From Massalongia carnosa (Eukaryota), in the NCBI GenBank assembly GCA_965645245.1, contig OZ287067.1, positions 186,001-250,000 of the forward strand: 64,000 nucleotides of DNA, given 5' to 3'. A program made the translations under genes and the position numbers. The notes under the pieces are model-generated. The model was not told where the DNA came from, did not search any database, and saw nothing but the letters and a program-made list of their open reading frames with translations. Of this stretch, positions 1 through 28,822 are shown in pieces; the stretch's first letter is position 1, and the number at the start of each line of letters is the position of its first letter.

Positions 1-1890
1 CGGTCGTCGATTTCGTAGGTAGTTGGCGGTGAGAACCATTTCAGCCCAATATTTGATGTCGAGTTTAGTGCCTTCTCGCATGGTGCTGGCTAACTTGTGA
101 AGCGTTTGACCTAGGCGCTCGGCTGTCCCGTTCATGAGTGGATTTCCCGGTACGGTAGGCTCCCACTGAATGCCATGCTCGTTTATGAAATTCTCGAAGT
201 CTTTGGAGTCATACTCACCCCCGCAGTCCGATCGCAAGCGCTTAACTCGTTTGTCCACATATTCGTTTTGCTTCTTGTAGTTTTTAAAGCCTTGAAGGAC
301 TCCGCTTTTGACGCGCAGTAAAGTGACGTGAGACCGTTTATCGAAATCGCAAAGAAAAGTCACCATATATTTGGCGCCATTCAAGGATTCTGGGAAAGGT
401 CCTAGACATCGCTGTGAGTTAAGTCCAGCGGGTGCTTGCCTAGTTGGATGGGGGCCCGGTGTGGTTCTACTTGGGACTGAGCGATGGCGCACGGAGGACA
501 GGCGTCTTGGGGCGGGGGCTTGATGAGGTCCATTCCTTTTGACATGCCAGCGAGCTTGAGAATGTTTTGATTTCCAAGATGGCCTAAACGAGCGTGCTAC
601 ATTTTTATCGCCTCGCTATTAATTGCAGCGAGAGCGAGAGCGGCTTCAGAGACGTTCCACATGTTCAGGATATACAGATTGTTGTCCTGGCGGCGAGCAG
701 TGATACCATAGTTCCCGATTTCAATTCCCTCTGGTACGATCTTCAGGGGACATCCATCTCGTTGTAATTGTCCTTGGGAAATGAGATTTAGGCCTCCGTC
801 CGGAACGTATAACACATCGAAAAGAGGGAACTCCCGAAGACCCTTGTTACCGGCACACAGCAACATGATGTTACCTATTCCTTTGGGAATTAATACTCCT
901 CCAATGCCTTGAATTGGTGGGCAATCGGATGTCTTGAATGAGGTGAAGATGGAGCGATCGTGGGTAATATGTTGGCTAGTTCCAGAGTCACAGATCCAGA
1001 GCTTAGATATTTTGGTTATATCCGCGGTGGCCATGTAGGCGCAGAAGGCTCCTTTGGTTGAGTCATTGTTTCCGGTTGGCTTTTGACTTTGACCTTGACT
1101 TTTGGAACTCCTGCGACGCTTATTGGACTTACGCCGTGAGTCTTGGTTAACGAGGTGTGGATATTTTTCATGACACTCGCTCTCTACGTGATAGTCCTTT
1201 CCGCAGTGGTTGCAATACTTGATGGTCTTGGTGATGATTCGAGAATGGGCTGTTCCAGGTTGAGCTCCGCGTTTGAAACTGCTGCCATTGCGATTACGGC
1301 CTTATCGTTGGACTTGCTTGGGTTGGTCACCGTGTTTTGGAAATGCTGCATAGCCTGACTTAATGTGTGCTTGAGTTCACCCATTTCATTGAAAGGATCA
1401 TGATCCTGAGCGTATCGTTCAAAATAGCTGTTGTATTCGAGGCATAAATTGGTATGAAAGCGATAGATAAGCCAGTTTTCGTCCAGGCTTAGCTTGCTTG
1501 AGAAGGTGCGAAGCTTATTGACCGTGGCGCGAAATTGGGTAATAGGGCTGCTGCAATCCGATAGGATAAGGTTGTCTAATTTTCTGAAGGTGTCATTGAG
1601 GAATCCCGAACCGCGAGGCTTATGGTTTGATTCAAGTGAAGCCATCATTGGGAGCGTTTGGTCCCATGTCCAGGTTGGTTTTCACTCCGTCACCGCCGAG
1701 CCCGTGGACGAAGACAATACTGTATGGTCAGTACCAAACAACCCGGACGAGACATGACATCTGGTGCGTACTATATTCGCGTCTGGAGAATCAAAGAGGG
1801 GGTCGCCTAATCCGTACAGTTCGGCCGTGCTGGCGTTGTCATCGCAACACAGAGGAGTCGTACGAAGGTTCGGGTGAAAAGTATTGACGG
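1..1890 (-). mobile_element. Degenerate Ty1/Copia element: gag, protease and integrase region; runs off the window start, 5' LTR not identified
   Basis: ORF 1184..1648 is gag-like. ORF 597..1034 has the Copia protease motif WICDSGTSQH and GAG-pre-integrase LYIL. Below 597 the minus strand reads HARLGHLG..C..C and RLRSDCGGEY..WEPTVPGNP..NGTAER (integrase core). Stops and frameshifts present. Confidence 0.85.
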
Positions 1891-2987: not shown

Positions 2988-3146
2988 TGTTGCGTCTAGG
3001 CAAGATTATACGAGTGTTGAAAGATGTTGATTAAATGAGCAAGTCTGCTCGCCTATATAAGCTTAAAATACGCTAGTCTCAATTGAGACTTCCCATAAAG
3101 GGAGCTACGACTATAGTTATAATACCATGTTACCATAACCATAACA
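2988..3146 (-). repeat. 3' LTR of G0
   Basis: tgttgcgtc...cataaca, direct repeat of 6734-6892. Confidence 0.95.
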
Positions 3147-3171: not shown

Positions 3172-6100
3172 TTAGCGACCTCGCTGACGCCCTCTACCCT
3201 TTCGTCCACTTGGAGTATCATTCCACACTACGAAGCATGGATAGCTGAACGTTGTAGGTTGAGTGGTGAACTTAAGTTTTCCCTGTTCCTGAAGCTTTTC
3301 AAAAGTTGTGTCGATACATTCTTTATCTGGTTTTGGTACGATACCTGATTTCAGGTTGATGGGCATCCATTCTTCCTCCGGAATTCCCACGGTCGTACCC
3401 TGATCGATGAACACATCTTGGTATTCGGTGACAAGGTCAGAGAGCGGTTGATTCATACCGATATGGCCATAAACGGTAACTCCGTTAAATAGCTTCATCT
3501 CCATATCGGGAGCTATAACTGAGTTGGGTTTTATCGAAGTGGTGGTATCAACACCGATTGTGCCACTAGATGATACGGATGTGGCATAAGCCGTAGCCAT
3601 TAAGGCCGCTCCCTTTGTGATTAATGATCTTATAGATCTTCCAGTCTTCCATCCTGACGTAGCTAGATGGGCTTCCGCTGGTAATGTCATGTAGCATCCA
3701 TGGTGCGTGTATTCTACCACTGATCCTAGGCGAGCTCTCTTCGGAAGAACCACCGGAGTGCTGGTAGCGTTATGAATGTTTACCCATGATAGGTCAGTGT
3801 CTACTATGGGGGCGAAAACGCCTCCCTCATGCCCCAAGTCATGACTGGCTGCAAGCTGTGGTTCGAAGAGAAAATCTCTGTCATCTGGTAACTGTCCATT
3901 GAAAGTGACTGGTACGCGCATGGTCGTTCCAGGAAGAACAGTGAAGGCATTCTTAGATCGGATCGTGCGCTTGATGTGTGGAGCAACACGGGCACGACTG
4001 TTGATGGGTATCTTGATGCCCTTGCAACTATCGATCGTCATGATCTGCTTCCCTAAGTCTAAGGTCATACCTTGAGGCGTCATGACGTCGTTTCCTATGA
4101 GTAGATTGACTTTCAGGTCATCTACTATGTGGACCTCGATGATTATTACGCCGGTAGCAGGACCATCCTTGGAGATTCCATCAAGATTTACCTGTACAAG
4201 AGCTACTTCATCTGTTCTTACCTCGCCTTTACCTACTCCACGAATAGGAACCGGAGATGCCATTCTAGTGATGACGAGATCCGGAACATGCTTCTGTAGA
4301 TAAGCACGATCTCCCATAGTAACCGAAGTTCCGGAATCCAAGCATATTTCTGACATCAGAGCGGAGCTTCCATAGGATACTTGAGCGGTAGCATAGTGAT
4401 AACCTCGAAAGGCATATCCAACACCCTTGGTTTTATCAGGGCTGATAGTTGACACTATTTTCTGTCTAAGATCGGTAGAGGAGGGTGATGTTTTTACGAC
4501 CGCTAAGTTAGGTGAAAGCTTATCCTTGGCGACTGTAGTCATCATGTTGACTGTAGTCAGCGTATCCTCCGTTTGAGACCAGCAGTCCTTTCGTAGATGG
4601 CGAAATAGTTTATTCCTTGATAAGAAGGAGGCCGCACATCTTGTGCAGGGAAAAATACTTGGTTCGACCGGAACAACAAAATTTGATGTTTCCTCATACT
4701 GGTATGGATACTCTTCTTCCGAAAACTCCTGCTCGTTCCGTTCTTCTGCAAAGTGTGTTCCTAGCACTTTCTCGCAGTTCCCGTAATCATCCTCGAGCTC
4801 CTCTGAGACCGAAGTCTGATATGCCTTCTGTTGAGGTCTTACGTGGTCAGACCAAGGACCACGATTAGATCCTGGTTGCTGCGGGTTCGTCATGAGACGA
4901 AGAGGTTGTCTAGGACCTCCGGGTGTGTTTGAAGGTACGTCCGCGATCTGAGGACGTTGGAACTGATTGGATGGTACAGAAGCTGGGGCTCTTGCGTTTA
5001 CGTTGGATAGGTTGTTCTGATAGCGAGGATCTTGTCGTGTCTGTTGTGAATATCCGTTGTGTTGGAAGCCACCATTGGGTATACCCAGATATCTTTTGTC
5101 GAAGTATCCCTGTAATTGCTGAGGCATGTAAGTCTGACCAGTTTGCGGAATACGATAAGATTCCCTATAAGGAAACTGATCCTGATCCTGAAAAAGCGAC
5201 TTTTTCTGTTGAAAAGGCGCTTGAAAAGGCCGTTGAAATGAACGAGAAAGAGACTGAGAAGGTCCTCCTCTTGTTTCGAACTTACTAGGTTGAATACGAG
5301 TGACCGGATGAGAGCGAGGTGCCTTGGCCCGAGCCCACCAGTCATGCTTACACTCATCCATGTCCTGAAGAAATTCGCTCAAGGTAGTGCCTTCCTTAGG
5401 CCTACGAAGGTCGCTTTGCCGCACCTCTTTGTCTATACCGTTATAGATAATGTCCAACTGATTCTGCACACCGGTCATACCAGCATCCTTGGCAGATCGA
5501 AGCATCTTTTGGACATACTCGCGTGGTTCCCGTCGATTAGCCGCGTCACGAATGGTATACTTCTCATGTAAGATGGCATCCATAGCTATGTTGGATGGCT
5601 GCTGGAACCTCCGTAAGAGTAACCTCTCCCATTGGCCTATCGATGTGTCTCGGCTACCTACTAGCTTGGTCATCTCCCGCTTATCGTCATCCAACTCACT
5701 GTGCCACCACTCCAATGCTTCGCCCTGTAAACACATCCACAGATTATTCCTCACTACGGTAGCACCCTTGGTGATGGCCATTTCCTTAGCCCTCTGGACA
5801 AATAGATGAACGTCTCGGAAGTAAGTCTTGGTACCGTCATGTTCTATGGCGTTCCCGGTGCTGATAGACCTTTCATTGTAATTGGGATCAAAAAACCCTA
5901 ACTCGGAAGATACCCAACGTGATTCTCCCCGAGGAGCACCAGCAATGGATCCTACGTCCTCTGTGGACACACCAGGGTCAGGTGGGGATGTTTTGGCAGC
6001 GGCAACAGCATATTTGGCTAGGGCATCTTCGACTGCCTTGCTGACCAAGGCTTCGATGTGAGCTTGGGATACAGTGGCTGCACTAGCGCTGGACCCGGCC

Positions 6101-6471
6101 ATCTCTCTTGGTTCGATGGGTTGAGGAGTGGTGCTAGAGGGACGGTTAGTATTGTCGCATTCCGCGAAGGGCTGATAGGCTGGATGCTGTCTATGAGGCT
6201 TAGTTCTTATTCGATAGTCCTCGAAGACCGCTGTCCGGATGTCTTTTTCAGACCAGTTTGAAGGGTACGAGATACTCTGAGAGCGTGTAACTGAACGGGT
6301 TCTGGCGCCAGAGCTTTCCGAGATCTCCCGTAAGCCTTTTGGTCGAGGAGAGACTGTAACCAGGTACTTGACAAATCTTGCTATGCGAAGAGGTAGTTCC
6401 AAGGTCAAGCTGGGATGGTCCGCCAACAGGTCGTGGATCTGAAAGGTCAGAACGAGAAGATCCTCTTCCAC
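3172..6471 (-). CDS. Gag-C2H2 zinc finger-aspartic protease polyprotein, ending at the start of RT
   Basis: 1099-codon ORF: gag-like CLQGEALEWW, CTRC..F.SRNKLFRHL finger, protease CLDSGTS...LLIGND, then RT N-terminus FSYPCFVVW..KGR and stop. No YxDD, RNase H or integrase. True ATG may be downstream (MAGSS, ~6101). Confidence 0.85.
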   Translation of the reverse strand: MEEDLLVLTFQIHDLLADHPSLTLELPLRIARFVKYLVTVSPRPKGLREISESSGARTRSVTRSQSISYPSNWSEKDIRTAVFEDYRIRTKPHRQHPAYQPFAECDNTNRPSSTTPQPIEPREMAGSSASAATVSQAHIEALVSKAVEDALAKYAVAAAKTSPPDPGVSTEDVGSIAGAPRGESRWVSSELGFFDPNYNERSISTGNAIEHDGTKTYFRDVHLFVQRAKEMAITKGATVVRNNLWMCLQGEALEWWHSELDDDKREMTKLVGSRDTSIGQWERLLLRRFQQPSNIAMDAILHEKYTIRDAANRREPREYVQKMLRSAKDAGMTGVQNQLDIIYNGIDKEVRQSDLRRPKEGTTLSEFLQDMDECKHDWWARAKAPRSHPVTRIQPSKFETRGGPSQSLSRSFQRPFQAPFQQKKSLFQDQDQFPYRESYRIPQTGQTYMPQQLQGYFDKRYLGIPNGGFQHNGYSQQTRQDPRYQNNLSNVNARAPASVPSNQFQRPQIADVPSNTPGGPRQPLRLMTNPQQPGSNRGPWSDHVRPQQKAYQTSVSEELEDDYGNCEKVLGTHFAEERNEQEFSEEEYPYQYEETSNFVVPVEPSIFPCTRCAASFLSRNKLFRHLRKDCWSQTEDTLTTVNMMTTVAKDKLSPNLAVVKTSPSSTDLRQKIVSTISPDKTKGVGYAFRGYHYATAQVSYGSSALMSEICLDSGTSVTMGDRAYLQKHVPDLVITRMASPVPIRGVGKGEVRTDEVALVQVNLDGISKDGPATGVIIIEVHIVDDLKVNLLIGNDVMTPQGMTLDLGKQIMTIDSCKGIKIPINSRARVAPHIKRTIRSKNAFTVLPGTTMRVPVTFNGQLPDDRDFLFEPQLAASHDLGHEGGVFAPIVDTDLSWVNIHNATSTPVVLPKRARLGSVVEYTHHGCYMTLPAEAHLATSGWKTGRSIRSLITKGAALMATAYATSVSSSGTIGVDTTTSIKPNSVIAPDMEMKLFNGVTVYGHIGMNQPLSDLVTEYQDVFIDQGTTVGIPEEEWMPINLKSGIVPKPDKECIDTTFEKLQEQGKLKFTTQPTTFSYPCFVVWNDTPSGRKGRGRQRGR

Positions 6472-6721
6472 GGGGATGGGGATGGAAGATGGAGCCAGGT
6501 GATAGCTGTTTCAGTCAATGTACTGGTGGACTAACAGCTAACACGGATAAAAGATAAGGTGAAAGATGTGCAGGATAGTAAGGTCGGATGTGAATGTCTG
6601 CTAAGGCAGACCGAGCTTGGTTGAGTTCCTCAGCAAACAACTGGTGCCGGAGGACTGGTGATAGCTGAAGACGTATCAATTGGTGTCTAGAAGCTATCGT
6701 ACTGGAATCAAGAAATCAAAA

Positions 6722-6733: not shown

Positions 6734-6892
6734 TGTTGCGTCTAGGCAAGATTATACGAGTGTTGAAAGATGTTGATTAAATGAGCAAGTCTGCTCGCCT
6801 ATATAAGCTTAAAATACGCTAGTCTCAATTGAGACTTCCCATAAAGGGAGCTACGACTATAGTTATAATACCATGTTACCATAACCATAACA
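6734..6892 (-). repeat. 5' LTR of G0
   Basis: Direct repeat of 2988-3146, adjacent to the PBS. Confidence 0.95.
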
Positions 6893-8463: not shown

Positions 8464-10263
8464 TTTCCTGAGAAAGACTGACCCAACCCGCCTTAATTGC
8501 AGCTATTGTGGTGTCATCATCCCAATGAGGTTGACGACCTACCCGTTGTTTGGGCACCTGCCAGCAATTTTCGATAGGAGAGAGATCAGGAGAACGAGGG
8601 CAGTTAAAGTAGTATTTTAGCCCATGCTCGTCCTTCCCCGATCCATGTCCTGAATCGCCATCTTCTTCCAACACGAAAATCGGGTCTGTTTCGAGCCATG
8701 TTTTTACTACCGGTTCCAGAACGAAGTCAATATACACCATCTGACTCATCTTTCCATTCGAATTGCCGGGAACCTCATAAAAAATCAGCTTTGATTTGAA
8801 GTTCCACCCCACAGCAGCCCAACAATGATATCGTTTCTGTTTTTTGTCCTTCTCTTCAGGCTCATGTTGTTCCTGAATGCAATCCTGACACGTACGCTCG
8901 CCAGGTTTTCGAATGATGCGTAGTCTTCGTTGAGGTCCTCGTCCGAAATGAACTTCATCGGAAAAGCGAACTCTTTTCCAATCATTCAACGAGTATGTGT
9001 TTCGTTTGTTCCAAGCCCAGTCCTTTCGTGCAATCATCAAATCTTTCGGGATGTAGGTTTTTGTGCGTGCGAGACATTTACGGTAGTTTCGTTCATGCAT
9101 CGCTCGTTGTATAGTACGCCAGGAGACGGAGGAAGTCTCAGCAGCTGCACCCAGTTGATTCCAGGTCAGTGATCTTCCCTCCAAGCCCGGTTTGCAATAT
9201 TTCATCCTTACGATCTATCTGCTTCTTTGACAGTTTGCGAGGCTGACCACGAGTCTCCGATTTGTTTGTATGATCATGCCGTCGATTAGTTTCTTGATCG
9301 TTGAGTATTTCATAACCTCGAGTATGTCCCACGCCGAAAAACTCGAAAACCTCTCGCTTTGAACGCAAAATCCCTTTCGCCTTGGTAGGAGTGGTATGCT
9401 CAGTATTTATAGTGATTCGTGACTCTAGAACAGGCTCCATTGCTTATAAAGAATTGATAAATGTGTGTATGTACGATGTAAAAATTAAAAAACTAAGGTG
9501 TGGGTGGTGCGGGGAAATTTTGGTGTCCGCCTGTTTCTGTCACGCGCGTGGAGGTTAATCAAGCAACGAATCGGAAGTTATGAAAAGATTATCACCATTC
9601 TGGATGATATAAAGTGTGACGGTTCGACTATTCGTGGTGCAGACGACAGCACCTATAGCGAACATGGTAGGAGTCCCAGTTATAGTGGAATAGAGCTTGG
9701 TCTGCGGACTAACTATTGAGCCTTTTGGTCAGGAAGGACAGGTGGCGCAATTGTAGAAATCTATTCACTATCTCTCTTCGTCACGAATGTAAATTGATTG
9801 AAGTTTAAAATTTTAAACTACGTTTATTGTTTCTTTTTTTAAACGCGCGAGTTGATAATCCGTTATTAAATAAATGATATATTTCTTAAACGAGTTAAAT
9901 CGCATGTTTTAAATTATGAAATTTTCATAAAATACTTAAAAAGTAACAAAGAATAAAACTTAAATTTTAAAAATCAAGTAGACATTTCTGATTTTTGTTT
10001 TTTATAAAGATTCAAATATTTTTCGCAGATACTCTGCGTTAGTTTTTAATAATGATGATGATATATTTATACTCCGATATGTCACCGGCCGTAGGCCGAC
10101 CCATGCGGGCAAAGCTATCTAAGTTATGTTATATGGAAAAACTTTTTCAAGTGTAAAAACCATATCCCTTGATACCCGGGTCGACGTCGGATAGGAGACG
10201 TAGAGCGAAAATATTTTGAGAACTGTGACGCCTTATAAGATAGGAAGGAAAAGATAAGTGAAA

Positions 10264-11378: not shown

Positions 11379-11441
11379 TTACGTCCGACCTACATTCAAG
11401 TGTTTCTTTGTTTTCTCTTTCCCCTATAACGATTGTTAATC

Positions 11442-12657
11442 ATGTCTTTTCAAGAAGAAACCGCAAATCTGCCTCAGGAACCTGAGGTAGCCCAAAAGGA
11501 GCGAGAACATGTCAGCAATAACCCGGACGAGTTCATCGCCGCCTATCGAGACCTGGAACGACAATTAGCTGAGATTCGAAACGCGGTTCCTCCAGCCATT
11601 AATCAAACGTCTTCCAACCCATTATTGGCAACCCCGTCATCAACTCCTTCTCCTTCCGTTCCGAGCTCTCAGCTGGCCGCCATTATAGAACAGCTAATGA
11701 AACGACCAGCGTTTCCGCTCAGGTCCGAGAAACTTCCTGACATACCGGAGTATGATGGTGACGAGGACAAACTCGATGCTTGGGAACAGAATCTAATTCA
11801 AAAAATTCACATTAACCATGACCGATACTTTTCCGATGAGGCCAAGATAGCTTATGCGGAGAGCAGACTCACCATCAGCAAGCGAGCCCATCTGCCCATG
11901 ACTCCCTACCGGATAGATGGCTTATGCCGCCTAACCTCTTTTTCGGACTGGAGAGCGAAACTTCGTCTGGCCTGTGGTAACCCCTTCGAGCAAGAGGATG
12001 TCCGTAAATATTTTGCGAGACACCCTGAAACAGGGTAACCTAACCTTTGAGGAATATTACAACCTTTTCTCTCAGAAGAAGGAACGATCTAGAATGGAAG
12101 ACGCCTCCCTCATCGATGCGATGAAGGCCAACATCAACTATTCCACCCAAACAGCGGCCATCCATTATCGAGTTCCCGGAACTAATCAGGAGCCCGTCAC
12201 CTTCGACGAACATGTTGCAATGTGGTCCCAAACGGATCGAAAAATTCGTCAAATCAGGCATATCTCGCCACGCCAAGCCTCTGGAGCCTCAATTAGCAAC
12301 TCCTCAACTAAAAAGGGGGCATCCGTCGCCACCACCACTGCTGTTGTCAGGAGCCCTGCCCTCCGCTCCTCCACCATCGTCGTCGCTCCAGCCGTCACCC
12401 CTGCTGCGGTTCCTTCTCTTCCTGCAGGGGATCCGATGGACCTCAGCTCCGCCATGGCCGCTATGAAAGGCCAAAGCCTGAAAGTCCCCGGAGTCAGGGA
12501 ATTCTGCGAGCAATGGAGACTATGCTTCTACTGTAAGCAATCGCACCCTGGGAAGACCGCAATCGACTGTCCCAACAAGAAGGCCCCGTCTACTATTCGG
12601 TCTCTTATCCCTTACAACGACTCCGACGCCTCTGACGATGCAGCGGGAAAAGCCTGA
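11442..12657 (+). pseudogene. gag: G1 gag, one frameshift near 12015
   Basis: ORFs 11433..12038 and 11974..12657 together align with the uninterrupted G4 gag (SEKLPDI.EYDG, CFYCKQSHPGKTAIDC). Confidence 0.88.
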
Positions 12658-15600
12658 GCCCCGTATTCAGTCGCATACGAGGGCTTCGAAAGTCTGATTT
12701 ATTGATTTCTGCATGTCTCCTTTCTTCATCATTTTCACCCCCCCTAATGTCCAACGCTCGTTTTTCTGCAGCGTCCGCTTTAACCTTGTTTGAAAACGAT
12801 GAAACTTTCAAAGATAGCCATATGGTTGTCTCATGTATATTACGTCGTCTGCAAGCAAGGATAAGAGCTTTAATTCTCGTGGACTGTGGTGCATCAGGTT
12901 ACTCATTCATCAATAAAGAATTCGCGCACCTTCATCAATTCCCCCTTCACCCCCTTAAATACCCTCGCCGACTCCTAGGTTTCGATGGTCAGCCTGCTCT
13001 GACCGGAAACATCACCCATGTGGCAGAAGTAACCATGGATCTCAATGGACACATAGAGAAACTGTTCCTATATGTGACCGGATTAAGACATTACCCCATC
13101 GTCCTAGGACACCTATGGCTGCGTCGACATGGCGCTATCACTAACTTCGCCAATAATACCCTGTCATTATCCTCCCCATTTTGCCTAGCACATTGCTGTC
13201 CCGGCCCCGTAATGGTTCATTCAACCACCGCCGAGGAAGAACAGTTCCTTATGCCTGCCGAAAGTCAGAAGGTATGGGAGACTAAAGATCAAGAAAACAT
13301 TCTGCAATCTAGTCAAACAGAACCATCGAAATTTGACTTTCAGGCTGAAGACGGTCCCAGTCGAATCCTAACCGCCATGCAAAAAGGCGTCTCCCCTAGG
13401 ATCCGATACCGGTCCGGGAGCTACGTTCGTTTAGCACCTCGCCTACATACCTCAAACCCCCTGCCCAGTAAACTAACCGCGGTTGAATCCGCACCAACCT
13501 ACCCAGCCCAGCTTCGAGTCAGTGAGGTGAGCGCCGGCACATTCGACCGCCTCGCAAGACAGAAGGACCACGAGATATTCAGTATCTCCCTACAAGAAAT
13601 AGACCGGTTCTTAGGTATAGAATCGCCTTTAAAACCCCCTAGCCCTAGCTCCAGGTCATCTATTAAGTTAATAGCAACCCAAGTTTTCCCCCCTTTTAAC
13701 ACTAAGGCCTGTCCAAGTGATAAGGACATGCACCTAGCCATTTGCAGAATGCACAATGAACTCACCCTAGAAAGCTCCGTCACTCAAGAAGAACTTGAGC
13801 ACGTTCGGCAGCAAAAGAACGTTGACCCGGCACCTCTGCTTCCAAAGCAATACCACGACTACCTAGATGTCTTTTCCAAGAAAGGAGTCCGATAAACTAC
13901 CGGAACACCGCTCCCATGATCACGCCATCGTCTTAAAAGAAGGTTTTCAACCACCTAATCAAGCTCTTTACGGGATGAGTCGTGATGAGATCCAGAAACT
14001 TCGTCGTTATCTAGATGAGAATCTCACCAAAGGATTCATTCGATCTAGCCGCTCACATGCAGCCTCCCCGGTTATGTTTGTTAAGAAGCCCGGCGGAGGA
14101 CTTCGATTCTGCGTTGACTACCGAGGACTAAACGCTGTCACCATAAAAAATCGTTATCCAATACCTCTAATCACCGAGACCCTCAACCGTTTGTGCAAAG
14201 CCAAGATATTTACCAAGTTGGATATTATATCAGCATTCAATCGCCTGTGAATCAAAGAGGGAGACGAAGAACTTACTGCTTTCCGGACTCGTTTCGGTCT
14301 CTACGAATATCTTGTCATGCCTTTCGGTCTGTGCAACGGACCTGCCTCGTTTCAACATTTTATCAATGACACCCTGAGGGAATACCTAGATAGATTCTGC
14401 ACCGCGTATCTAGATGACATCCTCATCTATAGTGATGACGAAATCGAACATGCCCTACATGTAAAACAAGTCCTTGTCAAACTCAGAGAGGCCGGACTCC
14501 AAGCGGACATCACCAAGTGCGCCTTCGGAGTCACCGAGGTCCCCTATTTGGGTCTCATCGTCACTACTAAGGGAGTCAAGATGGATCCTGCCAAGATCGA
14601 TACCGTCATCAATTGGCCTGCGCCCGTTAACGTTAGGGATGTTCAAAGCTTTCTAGGATTCGCCAATTTCTACAGGCGTTTCGTATTTGGGTTCAGTAAA
14701 ATAGCCTCGCCGTTGACGAACCTAACCAAGAAGGGAACGAAATTCTCCTGGACTAGTGATTGTCAGCAAACCTTCAATACGATGAAAAAGGCATTTACCT
14801 CCGATCTTATTCTCATGCACTTTGATCCAGACAAGAAAATCGTGGTCGAAACGGACGCCTCCGACTTTGTATCGGCGGGTATCCTATCGCAATATGATGA
14901 AAAAGATATCTTGCGTCCCGTCGCATACTTCTCGAAAAAGCATAACCCTGCCGAGTGTAACTATGAGATCTATGACAAAGAACTCATGGCCATAGTTCGA
15001 GCTTTCGAGGAATGGAGACCTGAACTAGAAGGCTCCGCCCAACCCATCGATGTTATTTCAGACCATAAGAACCTGGAATATTTCACCTCTACCAAGCTTT
15101 TGAGTCGGCGCCAGGCCCGATGGAGTGAGTTTCTAGCTCGATTCGACTATAAGATAGTCTACCGACCTGGGAGAGCCGGCGGTAAACCGGATGCCCTAAC
15201 TCGACGGTCAGGAGACCTCCCTGAAGAAGGGGATGAAACCGATGAGCGGAACTCATTTCAGCATCAGACGATACTGAAAACGCATAACCTAGACGACGGA
15301 GTAGCCGAGAGCTTCAATTCAACCGTGGTTGGAACCTCCCCAGACCCCATAGTGCTCGCTCCTGCTATTCTTGATCAAGAACAAGATCTTGACGAGGATG
15401 ATGACACAGAAACGGATCATGAAGAACCCCAACTAGATTTAGTTACTGATCAGCTAAACCCCGACGATGACCCAATGGACGTGGCCACTCAGGACCTTTG
15501 GAACCGAGCCTTGGATAGGGATAAGTTTTCACCCCGTGTTCTAGAAATGCTTCGAAACGGATCGAGATATCATAGCGGCATACAACTAGCAGAGTGCGAA

Positions 15601-16274
15601 GACAGAAATGGGATTTGTACTTCAGAAATCGACAATACGTCACAAATCAGATAGCCTTCGCCTAAGAATCCTACAACTCGCTCACAATAGTGTTGCAGGT
15701 GGACACCCAGGCCGTGCCAAATGTTATGAACTCATCAGTCGCTCTTATTGGTGGCCTAGCATGCACAAAACGGTGCAACGATTCGTCAGAAACTGCCATG
15801 TCTGCAAAAGAGCCAAACCCTCCCGTGAACGTTATCAGGGGTGGCTTAGGCCCTTACCTCCACCTGAGCGTCGCTGGCGCGATGTTGCTATGGATTATGT
15901 CGGACCCCTCTCGGCTAGCACCTTCATGGGAATCACCTATCGGTACATTCTAGTTTTCATAGATCGCCTAACCAAGATGCGCCATCTGGCTCCAGTCACA
16001 TCCATGGAAGTCGAAGAAGCCGTAGATGCCTTCTATCAGAATGTATGGAAGCATCATGTCAGGGTCCTGAGGTCACCTGACATCAGACTAGCATCGATTA
16101 GGTAATGTGCCGAGGAACCGACTTTTCAGGGGTTATATAGAACTCCGCCCGAGTAAAGCTTTTGGACTTCGTCTGAAGATTTTGGTGTAGAACTAGGCTA
16201 TTGAAATTGAACTCGTTTTATCCCTCACACAATCTTCAGACCTACAATCAGAATCATTAGGCTAATCAGAAAAC

Positions 16275-17867
16275 ATGAACTCATTAGAATCATCCAGCAG
16301 AGATGTCGCTCCCTCGGGGCCGGCCTTCAACACTAGAGCTCGCTCCATGTCGCGACAATCGACACAGAGCATACCAGGCGAATATGAACCCGCCGACGAA
16401 GAGGTGGGAAATGACACTGTTTTGCCGACAAACAAAGACAAAGGCAGGGAACCGAAGATCGAGGCCCCGACCTCAGAACCGAAAATCGACATAAGCAATT
16501 ATGCCATTTATCGAAGTCTGACGGAAAGCAATCCGTCGAAATCAGCTATGATCATCAAGGTGGCCAATCGAGAAGAGTTGAGAAGGGCCCTCGTCCTAAA
16601 GGGAGACGGCGACATATGGTACACTGTTCTAGCCGGCACGCTCCTACAACATGAGGTCTTGATCGAGAAATATCAGGACTTGAAAAAAAGAAACAAAGAT
16701 CTAAAAGGTCTACAGGCAGAATGGACCCGAATGATAAAGAGCTGGGATCACGAGAGACTAGTATTTGAGGAGGATATCGCGGCTGAAAAATTGGAGACTC
16801 AGAAGGTCAAAGCGGAAAACTCGGACCTCATTCGTGAAATATCAGAGATGAAACGTCTAGCTCGCGAAGCTACTCAGACGTCGACCTCATCGACTGGTCA
16901 AACTGAAGATCAATCCGCCGTCGCTGCCCCCTTAAGCAATTATCGACCCAAAGGCACCAACCCGAAGGAGGCCCTCGACGGTTCCAACTCAGACGCCTAT
17001 AGTGCATGGGCGTTTACGGTGGAAAGAAAAATCAGAACCGACTCCCCAATGTACACTAGTGAGGAGTTGAAAATCGACTACGCCTTATCGCAGATGAAGG
17101 ATCCCATTTTCGACGCCATACACACCTGGGTAGTGGATGCCGGTCCCACTCTCTCTTTGAATACGTTCTTCAAGGAAATTGAGAGCTATCTCGGGATAGC
17201 ATATTTGACAAAGGACGCGAAGAAGGAATTGAAAGAAATAAGCATGAACAAAGATGAAACGGTGACTGAATACTATCATCGAATGTTCAAACTCTGGCAA
17301 CGTGCAAAAACCCCCGCGGATGAGAGAATTGAGACGTTCAAGGACACCCTGCGGCCGAACATCGCGCTGTCTCTATTGGGACGGGACTTCATCAGTCTAG
17401 AAACCCTCTTGCATGAAGCCAGGAAAATCGAACAGGGAAGAAAGGAGATGAATCAGAAGTACGCGAAGTCGGAATCTCAGAAGCCCGCGAAAACGACGAC
17501 TTCTCCTTCTTCTTCCGTCGGTCGTGGTTTAAACAAAACCACGACCGCCACCTCCAGTACCTCGATCACAGTCAAACCAAAAGCGACTACGACCAACTCC
17601 GCCATCTCCGCCAACCCGAACTCGAAATTCGGACAGGTCTCGACCAAACCGGAAGGATGGGTAGGAGCTTGGTACGAGGGGACGCTTCACCCGCCCAAGT
17701 TGGAGGACGGGGAACGAGAGACTCTGTCACGACAGGGCCGATGTTGGTCGTGCAGAGGATCAGGGCATAGGGGCCGAGACCCCTGTTGCATTAGGCAAGC
17801 AGTGAATCTCAGTAGAGTCGCCATTCGAGAAGACTCATCCGAGTCCGAGGACTCGGAAAAAGAATGA
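16275..17867 (+). CDS. gag: G2 Gag (530 aa)
   Basis: Coiled coil, retrotransposon gag core, knuckle CWSCRGSGHRGRDPCC. Confidence 0.92.
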   Translation: MNSLESSSRDVAPSGPAFNTRARSMSRQSTQSIPGEYEPADEEVGNDTVLPTNKDKGREPKIEAPTSEPKIDISNYAIYRSLTESNPSKSAMIIKVANREELRRALVLKGDGDIWYTVLAGTLLQHEVLIEKYQDLKKRNKDLKGLQAEWTRMIKSWDHERLVFEEDIAAEKLETQKVKAENSDLIREISEMKRLAREATQTSTSSTGQTEDQSAVAAPLSNYRPKGTNPKEALDGSNSDAYSAWAFTVERKIRTDSPMYTSEELKIDYALSQMKDPIFDAIHTWVVDAGPTLSLNTFFKEIESYLGIAYLTKDAKKELKEISMNKDETVTEYYHRMFKLWQRAKTPADERIETFKDTLRPNIALSLLGRDFISLETLLHEARKIEQGRKEMNQKYAKSESQKPAKTTTSPSSSVGRGLNKTTTATSSTSITVKPKATTTNSAISANPNSKFGQVSTKPEGWVGAWYEGTLHPPKLEDGERETLSRQGRCWSCRGSGHRGRDPCCIRQAVNLSRVAIREDSSESEDSEKE

Positions 17868-20800
17868 TTCCTGATGATAGTCGCCATCAGGAATGTCGAG
17901 AAGTTTCATTAAGGGTTGTTAGAGCATCTGTTCTTTCTGTCGATCATCTCGTTCCGGGCAAGCATCTTTTATTTAGATGTAGTATAGCCTCTAATGAAAA
18001 TCAGCTGATGATCGATAACGGAAGTGAAGCTCAATTTCTTCATGAATCCTTTGCGCGCAAAAGAAAACTAGAGACCATTAGACTAAAAAAAAGAGACAGG
18101 GTCAGACTGGAACTTGGGGATGGAAAAGTCCATCAAATCATTGATAAGGCCGTTATCGTTCCCGTCAGAATCGGAGATCATGAGGAAAAGTTATTCTGCT
18201 ATCTGGCCGACATAGGTAATCATACCTTGATCATCGGTGATGGATGGCTGCAGGAGCATAACCCTCACATTGATTGGGTTGAACGCACCATGACGTTCTC
18301 CAATCGGTGCGTCAGTAAGGGATGCGCACCTCGATCTCATTCAGTCTCAAAATTTGAATCCACAATCTTGGAGAAGGAAACGACTGCCTCAGCAAAGAAC
18401 GAGGCCTTTGAAAATTTCGATATTCAGTCCCTCACCCCGAAGCGATTTATGAAACTTCTTCGAAGATCGGGTCATCAGACTTACTGTTTCTATCCGAGGG
18501 AAAAGCTCAACAAGAAGTTAGATAGGTACGAGAAGAAGCTTCTGACTGCTTCAAGTATCAACGCAGTCACCAGCGACGATGATGAGAAGTTCATGAAAGA
18601 CAAAGTCGAATATACTCTGGAAGAATTGAAAAAACGAGTACCCGAGGCCTATCATGGCGAGATTGAAGTCTTCATGAGGGCTAAGGCAGACGAGTTGGCA
18701 CCTCATCGAAAAGAGGATCACGAAATCAATTTGATGCCCGGGATCGAGCCCCCGTTCATCAAGAATTATCGGCCCATGTCCGAACAGGAATTGACCGCGG
18801 TAAGAAAATATCTAGATGAGCACTTAGCAAAAGGGTTTATTCGTCCAAGCTCGTCAAAGGCGGCCGCGCCGGTACTATTGGTCAGGAAACCAGGCGGGGG
18901 TCTTCGCTTTTGCGTAGATTATCGAGATCTGAATAATATCACGGAGAAAAGTCGATACCCCATTCCATTGATCAGCGAGACATTGGCGAAACTCGCCAAA
19001 GCAAAGTGGTTTACTAAATTGGACGTCATTCATGCATTCAATAGGATGAGGCTTAAAGAGGGACAAGAGTGGCTCACGGCGTTCAATACTCGATACGGTC
19101 AATTTGAATATCTTGTGATGCCCTTCGGACTATGCAACGCTCCATCAACATTTCAGAACTATATCAATAACTCCCTGCGAGAATACTTAGATTATTTCGT
19201 CACCGCCTATCTGGACGACGTACTGGTGTTCAGTGAAACAGAGACGGAGCACATCGAGCAGGTACTGAAGGTACTTCGTCGTCTGAAAGAAAGAGGACTT
19301 CAACTGGACATAGACAAGTGTGAATTCTCTGTCTCCGAAGTCAAGTACCTCGGAATGTTCGTGGGAGTGAATGGCGTTAGAATGGACCCAGAAAAGGTGA
19401 CGGCCATACTAGAATGGAAGACGCCCGCGTCAGTAAAAGAGGTGCAGTCCTTTCTTGGATTCGCTAACTTCTATCGTCGCTTCATTGAGCGATTCTCCGA
19501 AAAGGTGAAGTGTCTGACCGAGCTAACCCGCGGAGAGCAATATGTCACGAAAGGCGGAAAGAGACGCACCAAGTATCAAGACTTCGTGTGGACCACTGAA
19601 TGTCAGCAAGCTTTCGAAGACATGAAGATTTCTTTTACCTCTGCGCCGATTCTTGCTCATTACGACCCAAGGCTAGAGACCTGGGTGGAGACAGACGCAT
19701 CTGACTTCGTAGTATCGGGGATACTCTCTCAGATGCATGAAGGCGTTCTGAAACCCGTGGCTTATTTCTCGAAGAAGATGAGCCCCGCCGAATGCAATTA
19801 TGAGATCTACGATAAAGAACTCCTAGCCATCGTAGAAAGTTTCGTCATCTGGAGACCGGAGCTAGCGGGAGTGGAGCAATCAACAAAGGTCTACTCAGAT
19901 CATAAGAATCTGGAGACCTTCATGACTTTGAAACAACTAAATCGCCGTCAAGTGCGTTGGGCTGAGATGCTGGCGGAATATAATTTTCGCATTATGTATA
20001 GACCAGGCAAGCAAGGGGGCAAACCGGACGCCCTCACCAGAAGAGAGCAAGATCTGCCGATGGACGCGGAGGATGATCGCACCAGATATCAATATCAGGT
20101 GCTGCTAAAAGAAAATCAGCTGGACGATGAAGTGAAACAGGACCTGAAGCTGTACGTGACAACCAGATCCATGGCCAATCGAGAACGGGTTGAAGACAAC
20201 ATTACTACTGACTCATCCGATCAAATCAGGGATGAGGAAGTAGAGGACTTGACGGTAGAGGAGTTCACAATCAATTCGAATGATGATTCGGATGCAGAAA
20301 AGCCTGATGAATTATTAGAAAATCTTTTAGCGGAGGCATATCAAGAAGACACAATGATTCAGGAAGTCATGAAGGCTAAGTTGGAAAATCTGAAGAAATT
20401 GCCCGATAAAATTCTAAGCAACGGGCTGAGACTGGCGATGGGTGACTTGGAAGTCCGTCACGAAAGACTATACTACAAAACACGCCTCTTCATTCCGAAT
20501 TTCGACAAGCTGAAGCTGCGTCTTTTATCGGATCATCATAATCCCCCGATGCAAGGACACCCCGGGTATCGAGGCATGTATGCCAAAATGCTGGAGAACT
20601 ATTTCTGGATGTCCATGAAGGATGATTGTCGAAGATACGCTACTAACTGCTCTACATGCCGAAGGTCCAAGGCGTACAAGGATCAGAAACAGGGACTATT
20701 AGCCCCACTACCCATACCTCAAAGAAAATGGACAGACTTATCTCTGGACTTTGTAGTCAAACTGCCCAAATGTCACAGACGGGGCCGGACGTACGAAAAT

Positions 20801-21934
20801 ATCTTGGTTATCGTGGACAGATTGACCAAACGTAGGTTGTACGAACCTATGGTGGATATAGGCACGAAGGACGTACTAGAAGTCTTCAAACGTCGGGTCT
20901 TTTCAACATACGGCTTGCCAAACTCCATCGTCCACGATCGCGGGACGCAATTGACAGCCCATCTGTGGAAGCGAATTTGTCAGCGATTAGGAGTCAAATC
21001 GAAACCGTCCTCCGCGCATCATCCAGAAACAGATGGTCAAACCGAAAATGCGAATAAGGTTATGAAGAACTACCTGAGAGCATACGTCAGACATGCTCAA
21101 GACGACTGGGTGGACTACTTACCAGATGCCGAATTTGCAGTCAATAATCATACGAACGCTTCAACCGGAATGTCCCCCTTCTTCGCTGATCACGGTTATC
21201 ACCCTCGTAGTGGCTCGGAGCCGCCTCAGCCTTTTGACTCAAATGTCACCGGACGCGCGGAACTGATGTCGGCAGACAAAATAACCGCCCGACAAGAAGC
21301 CATGACCAAATGGCTTATCGAGCACCTAACCTGGGCACAGGCAGATCAGATGAGATATGCCAATGAGTCGCGGGCCCCACATCCAGACTACAAGATAGGA
21401 AACATGGTATATGTCAACACCAAAGATTTCTCCGTCGACAAGCAGAGTCGCTCCCTGAGTTCCAAAAACGCGGGGCCATGGAAAATCATCCGAAACATAG
21501 ATAACAAGGCCTATGAATTGGAAATTCCCGAACACTTGAAAAGAGTGGGGCTCACACCCATATTTCATCCATGGAAACTTCATCTGGCTCCTACGAACCC
21601 ATTCCCCGGTCAACTTATTGAACCGGGTCCCCCGATACTGATTCAAGAAGACGCCGAATCCAGTCTTCATGAAGAATATGAAGTCCTCGAAATCGTCGAC
21701 TGCCGTGAAACTAAGAAATACGGCACTCAGTATAAAGCAACCTATATCGGCTCATGGGATGACTGGAACGCAAACCCACCTTGGCAGCCATGGACTGATT
21801 TCATTCGCGCCAAAGAAGAAATCAGAAAATTTCATACAGACAATAAAGGAAAACCCAACGCCCCAAAGGATGTCCTATTCATGAATAACAGTCAACCATC
21901 GACGTCCGGAGCCGCCGTCTCAGAGGAGGGGTAG
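17864..21934 (+). CDS. pol: G2 Pol (PR-RT-RNase H-IN-chromodomain), in the -1 frame relative to gag
   Basis: MIDNGSE, YLDDVLVFS, ETDASD, H..GHPG..C..C, DRGTQL, HPETDGQTE, GPW, C-terminal EYEVLEIVD..WQP. Confidence 0.95.
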   Translation: MIPDDSRHQECREVSLRVVRASVLSVDHLVPGKHLLFRCSIASNENQLMIDNGSEAQFLHESFARKRKLETIRLKKRDRVRLELGDGKVHQIIDKAVIVPVRIGDHEEKLFCYLADIGNHTLIIGDGWLQEHNPHIDWVERTMTFSNRCVSKGCAPRSHSVSKFESTILEKETTASAKNEAFENFDIQSLTPKRFMKLLRRSGHQTYCFYPREKLNKKLDRYEKKLLTASSINAVTSDDDEKFMKDKVEYTLEELKKRVPEAYHGEIEVFMRAKADELAPHRKEDHEINLMPGIEPPFIKNYRPMSEQELTAVRKYLDEHLAKGFIRPSSSKAAAPVLLVRKPGGGLRFCVDYRDLNNITEKSRYPIPLISETLAKLAKAKWFTKLDVIHAFNRMRLKEGQEWLTAFNTRYGQFEYLVMPFGLCNAPSTFQNYINNSLREYLDYFVTAYLDDVLVFSETETEHIEQVLKVLRRLKERGLQLDIDKCEFSVSEVKYLGMFVGVNGVRMDPEKVTAILEWKTPASVKEVQSFLGFANFYRRFIERFSEKVKCLTELTRGEQYVTKGGKRRTKYQDFVWTTECQQAFEDMKISFTSAPILAHYDPRLETWVETDASDFVVSGILSQMHEGVLKPVAYFSKKMSPAECNYEIYDKELLAIVESFVIWRPELAGVEQSTKVYSDHKNLETFMTLKQLNRRQVRWAEMLAEYNFRIMYRPGKQGGKPDALTRREQDLPMDAEDDRTRYQYQVLLKENQLDDEVKQDLKLYVTTRSMANRERVEDNITTDSSDQIRDEEVEDLTVEEFTINSNDDSDAEKPDELLENLLAEAYQEDTMIQEVMKAKLENLKKLPDKILSNGLRLAMGDLEVRHERLYYKTRLFIPNFDKLKLRLLSDHHNPPMQGHPGYRGMYAKMLENYFWMSMKDDCRRYATNCSTCRRSKAYKDQKQGLLAPLPIPQRKWTDLSLDFVVKLPKCHRRGRTYENILVIVDRLTKRRLYEPMVDIGTKDVLEVFKRRVFSTYGLPNSIVHDRGTQLTAHLWKRICQRLGVKSKPSSAHHPETDGQTENANKVMKNYLRAYVRHAQDDWVDYLPDAEFAVNNHTNASTGMSPFFADHGYHPRSGSEPPQPFDSNVTGRAELMSADKITARQEAMTKWLIEHLTWAQADQMRYANESRAPHPDYKIGNMVYVNTKDFSVDKQSRSLSSKNAGPWKIIRNIDNKAYELEIPEHLKRVGLTPIFHPWKLHLAPTNPFPGQLIEPGPPILIQEDAESSLHEEYEVLEIVDCRETKKYGTQYKATYIGSWDDWNANPPWQPWTDFIRAKEEIRKFHTDNKGKPNAPKDVLFMNNSQPSTSGAAVSEEG

Positions 21935-23467
21935 TGTCAGGGTCCTGAGGTCACCTGACATCAGACTAGCATCGATTAGGTAATGTGCCGAGGAACCGAC
22001 TTTTCAGGGGTTATATAGAACTCCGCCCGAGTAAAGCTTTTGGACTTCGTCTGAAGATTTTGGTGTAGAACTAGGCTATTGAAATTGAACTCGTTTTATC
22101 CCTCACACATCATGGCCTACCTGATGTTCTCGTATCAGATCGAGGTTCGCAGTTCGTATCGGAACTATGGGAATTGCTGTGTAAGCGGCTAAAAATCGAC
22201 GCACGGTTGTCCACCGGATACCACCCGGAAACCGATGGCCAGAAAGAACGAGCCAACGCCTCCATGGAGCATTACCTTAGAGCCTATGTCAACCATATGC
22301 AGGATGATTGGGCCAAGTGGCTACCAGGCGCCGAATTCGCGGCTAATAATACGGACTCTTCCACAACTCTTGCTTCGCCATTTCTAGCAAATTCTGGTCA
22401 ACACCCCCGTATAGGATTCGAACCCTCCGAGCCTCTCCCGACGGACATTACCGCTCAAAGTCGAAATAATCTGATCGCAGCTAATAAGTTCGCGGACAGG
22501 ATGAGAGACTTAGAAACTCATCTTCATGATGAAATGTTAATCGCTCAAGCCATCTATGAATCCACTGCCAATGCAAACCGCCGACCATGCCCCCGCTATA
22601 AAGTGGGTGATATGGTATGGTTAAACACAAAGAATCTTCAAACAGCGAGACCCACCGTCAAGTTAGACGATCGAAACATCGGACCCTATGCGGTCAGTCG
22701 AGTTTTCTCGTAATAGGGTAGGCCTAGTATGCGTTCGTTGAACGTAAGACTGGCCTATGTGGCTATGTGGGATACGTACAGCCAAAACAACCACCAAGAC
22801 AATAAGGTCCCGCCTAACCCAGTTAGGCATAGTGTGGGGACTTAACTTATTATGGGGGTGTTTTCGTAGTACACAAAGTATCCCCTCGCCTCGCCTCACC
22901 TCCCCTAGCTCGCCTGCCTAGTCTCATCTACCAGTGTCTTTCGGTGACCGAAGTATTTCGAAGACCGAAAATACCAGGTAGTATGGACAAGGTACGGAAG
23001 AAGAGCTTAGGTTGTGGATTGTCCTATTCTATATAGATCAATGATCATACACTTCAAAAGGGTAGCATTTAGTCTACCCTTTGACCCGATCCAACCTATT
23101 TGTACCTCTATTGTGACCATCACGTTGTGTAGCCCCTGTAGATCCTGTCTTCCAGTAGTGAATGCCTGCTGGGAGAAGGTCTCCCCGTTTCACTTAGTCC
23201 CGTTGCCTAGTTTGTCCCGTTGCCCAGTTAGTTACGTTAGATGCACTCCTAGGCACATAATTATACTCCATTTTCCACCACATGCGACAGTCGTGCTGAG
23301 TCACTTTACCCTTTAAATCATCATTGTACTAGTCCTGAAGAGCTTTTCGCTGAATATTCTTGATTCCATGACGGGTTTTTTTCGGAAGAGGGAAATTGAC
23401 AAAGACATAAAGACAAGCCATTCTCGGGACAAATTTACAGCAGAATCGTAGCAAATATATGACAGCT

Positions 23468-28570: not shown

Positions 28571-28822
28571 TAGGCGTCCCAGGTGTAAGGAAGCTGTCGT
28601 CGATTCTAATCAACCGCTATTAAACTAAAATTTATCTACAAAAGAAGAAAAGAAACATTGTGCGCGACTCGCTAGAAATATCTGCACCGAGTGTCGCGCT
28701 AGCCTCGCGTGCTCGCGTGCTCCCCCCTTCCATCTCAGCCTTATGTCAGGCTAGGACCCTGACACTATCCCCCCTTCTATTGGCAAGGTCTCCGAAGCGC
28801 TAAGTGGCAGGCGCCCTGCCAG

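Follow-up and report, generated by a model that had tools for sequence, protein, structure and literature searches.

Frameshift stimulators are usually viewed as mechanical roadblocks in which shape alone matters, and further layers of control came to light in the few cases in which an unpaired sequence is itself recognized, namely, cardiovirus 2A, luteovirus long-range pairing, and arterivirus nsp1-beta. Here, we analyze a hairpin with a conserved loop at the gag–pol junctions of four Ty3/gypsy retrotransposons, designated G1 to G4, in a 64,000-nucleotide (nt) stretch of DNA from Massalongia carnosa (GenBank assembly GCA_965645245.1, contig OZ287067.1, positions 186,001 to 250,000 of the forward strand; hereafter, the window). 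Judging from a comparison with relatives of these elements, we consider it probable that the hairpin belongs to a −1 frameshift signal of a fungal (probably ascomycete), Tf1/sushi-like Ty3/gypsy clade and that its loop, nAAGUCGC, is read in trans. The closest described systems each resemble these junctions in part.

(i) Human immunodeficiency virus type 1 (HIV-1) and simian immunodeficiency virus (SIV) resemble the window junctions in that gag ends in a slippery heptamer, followed after a short spacer by a simple hairpin and not by a pseudoknot; the signal sets the Gag:Gag-Pol ratio in these viruses and would do so here. The SIV frameshift hairpin has a structured, sequence-specific 12-nt loop. 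Unlike in these viruses, the shift site here has the form N_NNA_AAN with a P-site codon that is often unable to re-pair, the hosts are fungal, and nAAGUCGC is kept across elements whose reverse transcriptase (RT)–RNase H regions are ~45 to 76% identical to that of G2.

(ii) PEG10 and the sushi elements are related to those described here: a feature search with the G3 gag returned clusters mostly from Ascomycota, with PEG10 also among the look-alikes. They share a G_GGA_AAN shift site and, according to one account (PMC13622457), a gag stop in loop 1 of PEG10; here, a UAA gag stop lies inside the loop at five loci (L014, L025, L026, L028, and L037). PEG10 differs in combining GGGAAAC with an H-type pseudoknot, whereas the junctions considered here are without a downstream partner and the loop sequence itself is kept.

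(iii) Cardioviruses (encephalomyocarditis virus and Theiler’s murine encephalomyelitis virus) have a 3′ stem-loop behind a spacer of 13 to 14 nt, with conserved loop nucleotides that are read by the trans-acting 2A protein. A conserved loop on a stem that is free to vary is common to both systems, and we take the cardioviruses as the working model for how the loop might act here. Their protein is known and their spacer longer, whereas here the spacer is 5 to 7 nt and the protein is putative.

(iv) Barley yellow dwarf virus (BYDV) and red clover necrotic mosaic virus (RCNMV) likewise carry an unpaired conserved sequence on a stimulatory hairpin. Their defining feature, a distal complement, was looked for here and not found at lengths of at least 5 nt.

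(v) Li, Stahl and Farabaugh reportedly proposed in 2001 that the Ty3 +1 stimulator pairs with helix 18 of 18S rRNA. Ty3 likewise belongs to Ty3/gypsy, and its 3′ stimulator is sequence specific and possibly acts directly on the ribosome; Ty3 differs in shifting +1 with an unstructured stimulator, whereas here the shift would be −1 and the motif sits atop a hairpin. PMC5009743 describes the Ty3 3′ frameshift stimulator.

The kind of cassette is already known, and it is the conserved loop motif that is without counterpart in Rfam or in the literature searched; the gag–pol recoding survey of Gao et al. (2003, RNA 9:1422), known here through a review (PMC5009743), may describe fungal hairpins. The whole window gave no Rfam match at the gathering threshold, and the G2 junction gave three matches at E values up to 10, all at chance level and to unrelated families.

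The elements have the long terminal repeats (LTRs), gag, and pol order (protease–RT–RNase H–integrase) that define Ty3/gypsy (Metaviridae). In Pfam searches, the pol frames of G2 and G3 match protease, RT, RNase H, integrase, and the SH3 domain of the Tf2 type, and RT–RNase H identity to G2 amounts to 76% for G3, 60% for G1, and 59% for G4. The preliminary description had called the elements chromoviruses, a label that is tentative at best: no chromo family was found by Pfam, including in a search at E values up to 10; the last 164 amino acids (aa) of G2 pol do match the CDYL chromodomain at residues 77 to 136 in a phmmer search of the PDB, weakly (E = 0.007). The elements and their junctions, with shift sites read from the sequence and open reading frames (ORFs), gag stops taken from the ORFs, and E values from the covariance model described below, are as follows.

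12645–12651, plus strand: G1 shift site GGGAAAA, read G_GGA_AAA in the gag frame
12655–12657, plus strand: G1 gag stop, TGA
12657–12685, plus strand: G1 hairpin with one bulge; 5′ arm 12657–12666, loop TCAGTCGC 12667–12674, 3′ arm 12675–12685; model E 5.4e-08
16057–22109, plus strand: whole element G2, inserted within G1; LTRs 16057–16231 and 21935–22109, 100% identical; gag frame open 16266–17867, pol 17816–21934
17855–17861, plus strand: G2 shift site GGAAAAA, read G_GAA_AAA in the gag frame; perfect re-pairing for the A-site tRNA only
17865–17867, plus strand: G2 gag stop, TGA
17867–17894, plus strand: G2 hairpin, 10-bp stem; 5′ arm 17867–17876, loop ATAGTCGC 17877–17884, 3′ arm 17885–17894; model E 3.8e-10
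28583–34891, minus strand: whole element G3; LTRs 28583–28774 and 34700–34891; gag frame open 32845–34530, pol 28823–32860
32857–32851, minus strand: G3 shift site GGGAAAA, read G_GGA_AAA in the gag frame
32847–32845, minus strand: G3 gag stop, TAG
32846–32817, minus strand: G3 hairpin, 11-bp stem; 5′ arm 32846–32836, loop GAAATCGC 32835–32828, 3′ arm 32827–32817; model E 2.9e-11
47510–53996, plus strand: element G4; LTRs 47510–47947 and 53558–53996; gag frame open 48016–49182; pol broken by later frameshifts
49170–49176, plus strand: G4 shift site GAAAAAA, read G_AAA_AAA in the gag frame
49180–49182, plus strand: G4 gag stop, TAG
49182–49210, plus strand: G4 hairpin with one stem bulge; 5′ arm 49182–49191, loop ATCGTCGC 49192–49199, 3′ arm 49200–49210; model E 8.1e-09

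In all four elements, pol overlaps gag and lies in the −1 frame relative to it (stop-to-stop ORFs), and each junction runs from a G/A run that ends gag, through 5 nt holding the gag stop, to a 10- to 11-bp inverted repeat with an 8-nt loop ending in TCGC. A preliminary description of the window had placed hairpins at these four sites, with pol in the −1 frame, and direct reading of each site agrees on both counts. RNAfold z-scores against shuffled sequences are −2.83 for G2, −3.97 for G3, −4.38 for G4, and −1.0 for G1.

Since the 175-nt LTRs of G2 are identical, we take it to be a young insertion. G1 is older and degenerate, occupying 11430–16056 and 22110–~23000 on either side of G2, and resumes beyond it in a stretch (22135–22434) that is 72% identical to 52567–52866 of G4. 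Directly behind the 5′ LTR, both G2 and G4 carry 9 nt whose complement lies inside the LTR, 3′ of a TATA box (16232–16242 with 16171–16181 in G2; 47949–47957 with 47826–47834 in G4; matched by eye, with no statistics), and by this layout both elements appear to use self-priming of the Tf1 type rather than tRNA priming.

Within the window, a hairpin with this loop ending is less distinctive than the four junctions suggest. There are 156 window hairpins with an 8-nt loop and at least nine pairs, among which TCGC is the commonest loop ending (n = 5); three of these five are gag–pol junctions and two are copies of one unrelated hairpin in a Tc1/mariner transposase, so a TCGC loop alone can arise by chance. 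(The latter, at 54155–54184 on the plus strand and 8955–8984 on the minus strand, is an 11-bp hairpin with the 8-nt loop GAGTTCGC, inside transposases recognized by Pfam DDE_3 and HTH_Tnp_Tc3_2.) The part of the signal that is not chance is the comparative one, seen in a wider sample. A covariance model of the cassette, a step suggested in the preliminary description, matches the four reported sites and nothing else in the window, leaving the remaining window transposons without the hairpin.

The wider sample consists of the 80 best relatives by pol protein similarity among public metagenome contigs, selected without regard to the hairpin; no relatives were found among viral contigs. Candidate junctions were taken from ORF positions alone, wherever an ORF of 150 aa or more has its end within the beginning of a second ORF; from the window and these loci, we read 33 as true −1 gag/pol boundaries. 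A hairpin is at or over the gag stop in all 33, with a loop that we call A-type (nAAGUCGC with at most two departures) in 28 and a longer, B-type loop in 5. Failure of the loop to persist in a wider sample had been named in advance as a possible refutation, and the motif holds. An energy-ranked list of hairpins near the expected junction, a pattern scan, and the covariance model give a picture that agrees with the ORF-defined list. By our tally of the 80 loci, 35 have A-type junctions, 19 have B-type junctions, 1 (L002) has gag and pol fused without the cassette, and in 25 the junction is outside the locus, truncated, or unresolved. The dozens of relatives that share the signal come from metagenomes of soil. 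The A-type cassette comprises an A_AAN shift site, a 5- to 7-nt spacer, a 9- to 11-bp stem, and the nAAGUCGC loop.

When 33 distinct A-type junctions were aligned at their loops, an ungapped alignment of 48 columns resulted; lineage counts (n = 27) are given after near-identical families were collapsed. Both sides change in 11/11 stem pairs. In the 33 sequences, 82.4% of cells at these 11 named pairs can pair, versus 35.5 to 45.7% when the 3′ partner is slid by 1 to 3 columns, and the covariation score of 0.737 (0.285 in shuffles) was reached by 0/500 shuffles; qualifications on these figures are given with the arguments against our reading. Because the stem covaries, we take the hairpin to be real at the RNA level. 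Across the 27 lineages, information content averages 1.38 bits per loop position, against 0.65 and 0.67 for the two arms, which upholds on a broader basis the initial observation that the loop is kept while the stem varies. The commonest bases at loop positions 2 through 8 are A (22 of 27 lineages), A (26), G (23), U (24), C (26), G (26), and C (25), such that seven of the eight positions are constrained. The loop had originally been described as ending in TCGC; this ending is indeed conserved, but the core is longer, nAAGUCGC, and within it position 5 is the loosest, admitting any base (G in the L046 family; A in L049, L051, and the second L070 copy; C in L009 and L021). Five loci (L004, L008, L017, L019, and L067) have 10-nt loops, created by a mismatched closing pair, and keep the motif.

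In an RT–RNase H tree (quick maximum likelihood, 78 rows), A-type loops are found to either side of the midpoint root and in every clade except the one to which all B-type loops belong, a derived clade of 31 rows (approximate likelihood-ratio support, 99) nested among A-type clades. The B-type hairpins, found at junctions that include those of L018, L022, L029, L034, L039, L040, L048, L053 to L055, L059, L066, L075, and L077, have loops of 10 to 16 nt whose 3′ side holds GAUGGCAC, UUGGCAC, or, in L048, GAUGGCGC. Compared by eye with AAAGUCGC and the AAAGGCGC of the L046 family, the B-type sequences look like the same motif, RAWGNCRC, in a larger loop. Further loop variants stand behind G_GAU_UUU or G_GGU_UUU sites in L003/L006 and L058/L064.

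A set of 27 contigs (L081 to L107) from bacterial and archaeal metagenome-assembled genome (MAG) bins, with labels such as Acidobacteria, Paracoccus, and Tolypothrix, encodes a eukaryotic Ty3/gypsy pol and is probably mis-binned eukaryotic DNA; these contigs were unused in model building and served as a held-out set. The model matches three of them, L096, L104, and L102. In a FastTree phylogeny with a midpoint root, from which L096 was excluded on account of its short RT match, L102 and L104 fall inside the clade formed by the A- and B-type elements, as does L090, which has the variant loop GAGAGUCUC and was missed by the model. Seven contigs outside this clade (L083, L085, L086, L088, L095, L098, and L106) have junction hairpins with other loops, and L087, also outside, shares one frame between gag and pol, which a single TGA separates (L087:1099–1104), a readthrough-type junction. 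Since the outgroups, whose loops differ, lie beyond the A+B clade, the motif marks one clade and not all −1 shifting Ty3/gypsy elements.

The shift site follows the pattern N_NNA_AAN in the gag frame. Its A-site codon is AAA, AAC, or AAT, always after an A, which yields A_AAN in 26/27 lineages and U_UUU in L009, and its P-site codon varies (GGA, GAA, AAA, TTA, GTA, CCA, GCA, or CTA). Canonical X_XXY_YYZ heptamers are present in G1, G3, L001, L007, L013, L014, and L046. The A-run is held at a fixed distance from the stem (columns 9 to 11 are A in 26/27 lineages), and the effective spacer is 5 to 7 nt because the outermost nominal pair is mostly unpaired (21/33). The position of the gag stop moves, from just after the heptamer to one codon later, to the foot or 5′ arm of the stem, or into the loop. 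Comparative evidence alone supports the cassette as a −1 gag–pol frameshift signal, through which a fraction of ribosomes would pass from gag into pol by a −1 slip. By analogy with characterized systems, the ribosome would pause with a Lys or Asn tRNA on the A_AAN of N_NNA_AAN while the 9- to 11-bp hairpin, 5 to 7 nt downstream, sits at the mRNA entrance, and the tRNA would re-pair one base back.

A shift site that is always an A-run (a T-run in L009) also invites an explanation that involves no ribosomal slip: RNA polymerase II or reverse transcriptase could slip on the run, and the addition of one A would put pol in frame. PMC5737552 describes retrotransposon cassettes that slip in vitro. 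The same source gives a minimum of nine A’s for efficient slippage at such runs, states that stimulation of reverse-transcriptase slippage requires a structure 5′-adjacent to the run, and reports that one reverse transcriptase showed no increase in base addition at an A5 run with a stem-loop immediately 5′ of it. The run here is mostly four A’s (GGGAAAA), below that published minimum, and the hairpin lies 3′ of it, 5 to 7 nt away; with the run so short and the structure on the wrong side and too far off, we consider polymerase or reverse-transcriptase slippage highly improbable by the criteria of this source. Contigs of four sequencing runs over 17600–18100 show no indel at the A-run, a weak argument given that contigs drop rare variants, and no change inside the G2 hairpin. 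The run labeled X5 gave, over G2 (17600–18100), many contigs of 60 to 84 nt with very high stated depth and adapter-like loose ends, from which no conclusion was drawn.

The fixed distance between hairpin and A-run, maintained in 26/27 lineages while the gag stop wanders, likewise bears on whether the hairpin serves mainly as a Gag-binding packaging or dimerization signal, or as another replication signal located at the gag–pol junction. A conserved loop would suit a protein-binding site, most gag ORFs end in a CCHC zinc knuckle just upstream, and the HIV-1 packaging enhancer overlaps its frameshift site; the constant spacing would be unexpected on such an account, as would the absence of the hairpin from L002, the one relative in which gag and pol are fused. 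In this element (L002:1315–1464), a sister of L001 and close to G2 and G3, gag, protease, and RT are in one frame, and neither an A-run cassette nor a model match was found between the zinc knuckle and the protease. In addition, the loops of most lineages are not self-complementary and would not form a dimer kissing loop. We therefore hold a principal role in packaging or dimerization to be very unlikely, while a possible dual role in frameshifting and packaging overlaps with the explanation we favor. Two candidate signals were rejected: a self-complementary dimer loop, since TCGCGA or CGCG occurs in only some lineages of the 33-row alignment, and a 5′ splice site, since GTAAGT is present in L025 only.

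The loop is also coding sequence for pol, and conservation of the protein might be thought to explain it. The pol frame of most lineages divides the loop into xxA AGT CGC (x-Ser-Arg), as would be expected if Ser-Arg were required at that place. Against this, four independent groups (L019/L020, L021, L027, and L046/L063), which all fall within the clade to one side of the RT-tree midpoint root, read the loop one phase off, as NAA GTC GCN (K/Q/E-V/A/G-A). Synonymous codons also go unused in the Ser-Arg phase: nearly every lineage uses CGC for Arg, and AGT is the sole codon wherever Ser is encoded, despite the fact that in the same pol ORFs CGC makes up 442/1828 Arg codons (24%) and AGT 151/1556 Ser codons (9.7%). 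Finally, the codon before CGC varies in amino acid (S, N, R, I, or T) yet keeps most of its nucleotides. An amino acid constraint, which the preliminary description had listed among the findings that could overturn its reading, fails on the two phases and the missing synonymous codons; in our judgment, the existence of two reading phases refutes it, and we attach next to no probability to it. These patterns indicate that selection acts on the RNA itself to keep nAAGUCGC.

The next question is what the RNA motif does, and one answer, given in the preliminary description, was a kissing interaction between the loop, through its UCGC, and a GCGA far away in that RNA, comparable to long-range frameshift activation in BYDV and RCNMV. 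A covarying stem topped by a conserved, unpaired loop is indeed what such systems show, and a partner might lie in those parts of many elements (LTRs and untranslated regions among them) that extend beyond the loci covered, or be only 4 nt long, too short for statistics. The searches nevertheless speak against it. The complement of loop nt 4 to 8 is absent from the examined sequence of L005 (6,713 nt), G1, L046, L063, and L065, and where 5-mer complements are present, their flanks are non-homologous between elements. Exact 7-, 6-, and 5-nt loop complements sought over whole loci gave nothing consistent. Within 110 nt of the hairpin, GCGA occurs downstream in 6/33 sequences and upstream in 9/33, at or below chance, and GCGAC occurs downstream in 2/33, with no shared downstream 5-mer beyond composition. 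The loop variants CCGC, GCGC, ACGC, and UCAC arise without a matching change in a partner. No H-type pseudoknot, in which the loop pairs with sequence just downstream, was found in the 33 sequences, consistent with the original remark that no adjacent partner is visible, and no long-range kissing complement of at least 5 nt was found within the locus sequence covered. The long-range GCGA partner proposed at the outset thus finds no support from elements that lack its 5-mer complement or have it at non-homologous places, and we now rate it quite improbable.

With no partner of at least 5 nt found in cis, two accounts of the loop merit the most discussion. The favored one is that the motif is read as a single strand by a partner in trans, which would be a host or element protein (e.g., Gag) or the ribosome, and that this reading would set or regulate the Gag:Gag-Pol ratio. 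A protein contact had been offered in the preliminary description as the alternative to a kissing partner. We favor a trans reader because persistence through mismatched closing pairs and in far larger loops is what a linear motif would show; taken by itself, the proposition that a trans-acting partner reads the loop has, in our estimation, slightly less than an even chance of being correct. The other is that nAAGUCGC folds compactly by itself, making the hairpin harder for the ribosomal helicase to unwind with no need of a partner, possibly with the adenines stacked and G4 paired to C8 across a turn of 3 nt; it would then be similar to the structured SIV loop of 12 nt. Constraint on seven of the eight positions, the lack of a cis partner, and the freedom of position 5 (U, G, A, or C), which is in the middle of the putative turn, are all compatible with such a fold. 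It is harder to reconcile with the persistence of the motif in the 10-nt loops with mismatched closing pairs and with the B clade, where a related core at the 3′ side of loops of 10 to 16 nt poorly fits one compact fold; moreover, nearest-neighbor folding leaves the 8-nt loop open. We regard a self-structured loop as unlikely, if still worth serious consideration.

Several observations weigh against a frameshift signal with a trans-read loop and must be set beside the evidence for it. We infer the trans reader purely from conservation of the motif, which a self-structured loop would explain equally well. Two details lean toward such a loop: the substitutions seen at loop nt 4 and 8, mostly G→A and C→U, would leave G:U or A:C combinations that a wobble pair could accommodate (GTCGT in L037 and L010; ATCGC in G3 and L067), and RNAfold pairs nt 1 with nt 8 in G3, leaving a 6-nt loop. 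(On the former, transitions that keep a wobble are the commonest mutations anyway, and no true double change at positions 4 and 8 was seen.) The P-site tRNA would be unable to re-pair in G2, G4, and many other loci (G_GAA_AAA, G_GTA_AAA, or G_CCA_AAA). The G1 hairpin, belonging to a degenerate copy and with a bulged stem, folds by itself no better than shuffled sequences. The figures for loop conservation and pairing are inflated because the A-type rows were collected partly via the loop pattern and a pairing filter, the ORF-defined count and the energy-ranked hairpin list being the less biased views, and the shuffle controls overstate significance because the sequences are related and the tree is ignored. 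Loss of the cassette in L002 is what a frameshift function predicts, but, as a single case, it is a weak member of the argument.

A more specific version of the trans reading, in which the loop is a docking site for a trans-activator and the whole a regulated frameshift switch of a fungal retrotransposon clade, seems to us improbable in its full form. In one variant, the element’s own Gag would bind nAAGUCGC and feed back on the Gag:Gag-Pol ratio in the manner of cardiovirus 2A; most gags of both loop classes have one CCHC zinc knuckle, which provided no discrimination between the classes. In another, the loop would pair with small-subunit rRNA at the decoding region. The B-type UGGCAC is complementary to GUGCCA, which we take to be the universal 515F primer site in helix 18, and the A-type AAGUCG presumably equals the helix 44 strand in the ITS5/1492R primer site; both are leads that may well be coincidence.

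The relatives amount to a natural mutagenesis series of about 27 lineages, with two reading phases, loops of 8, 10, and 10 to 16 nt, a derived core, and one fused gag–pol relative, and the series as a whole points to a loop motif that can be read. A reader, if there is one, would be a factor of the host or the element that adjusts Gag:Gag-Pol across a large group of fungal transposons, and the 48-nt model R1 would offer a handle for annotating gag–pol junctions in fungal genomes. Were the loop only to stabilize its own fold, it would still be a new RNA loop motif.

Elsewhere, too, the window is rich in transposons, with pieces of Ty1/copia pol (RVT_2, Pol_BBD, and SH3_retrovirus) and Tc1/mariner fragments identified by Pfam in the following segments.

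1–1681, minus strand: Ty1/copia or Tc1/mariner piece
36245–37093, minus strand: Ty1/copia or Tc1/mariner piece
41436–42519, minus strand: Ty1/copia or Tc1/mariner piece
57532–61685, minus strand: Ty1/copia or Tc1/mariner piece
62615–63998, plus strand: Ty1/copia or Tc1/mariner piece

An additional open frame of 1,112 aa on the minus strand (3172–6510) has no Pfam match even at an E value of 0.01. It is flanked by two 159-nt direct repeats that are 100% identical (2988–3146 and 6734–6892) and 3,746 nt apart, and, together with these repeats, may represent a novel or non-autonomous LTR-type element.

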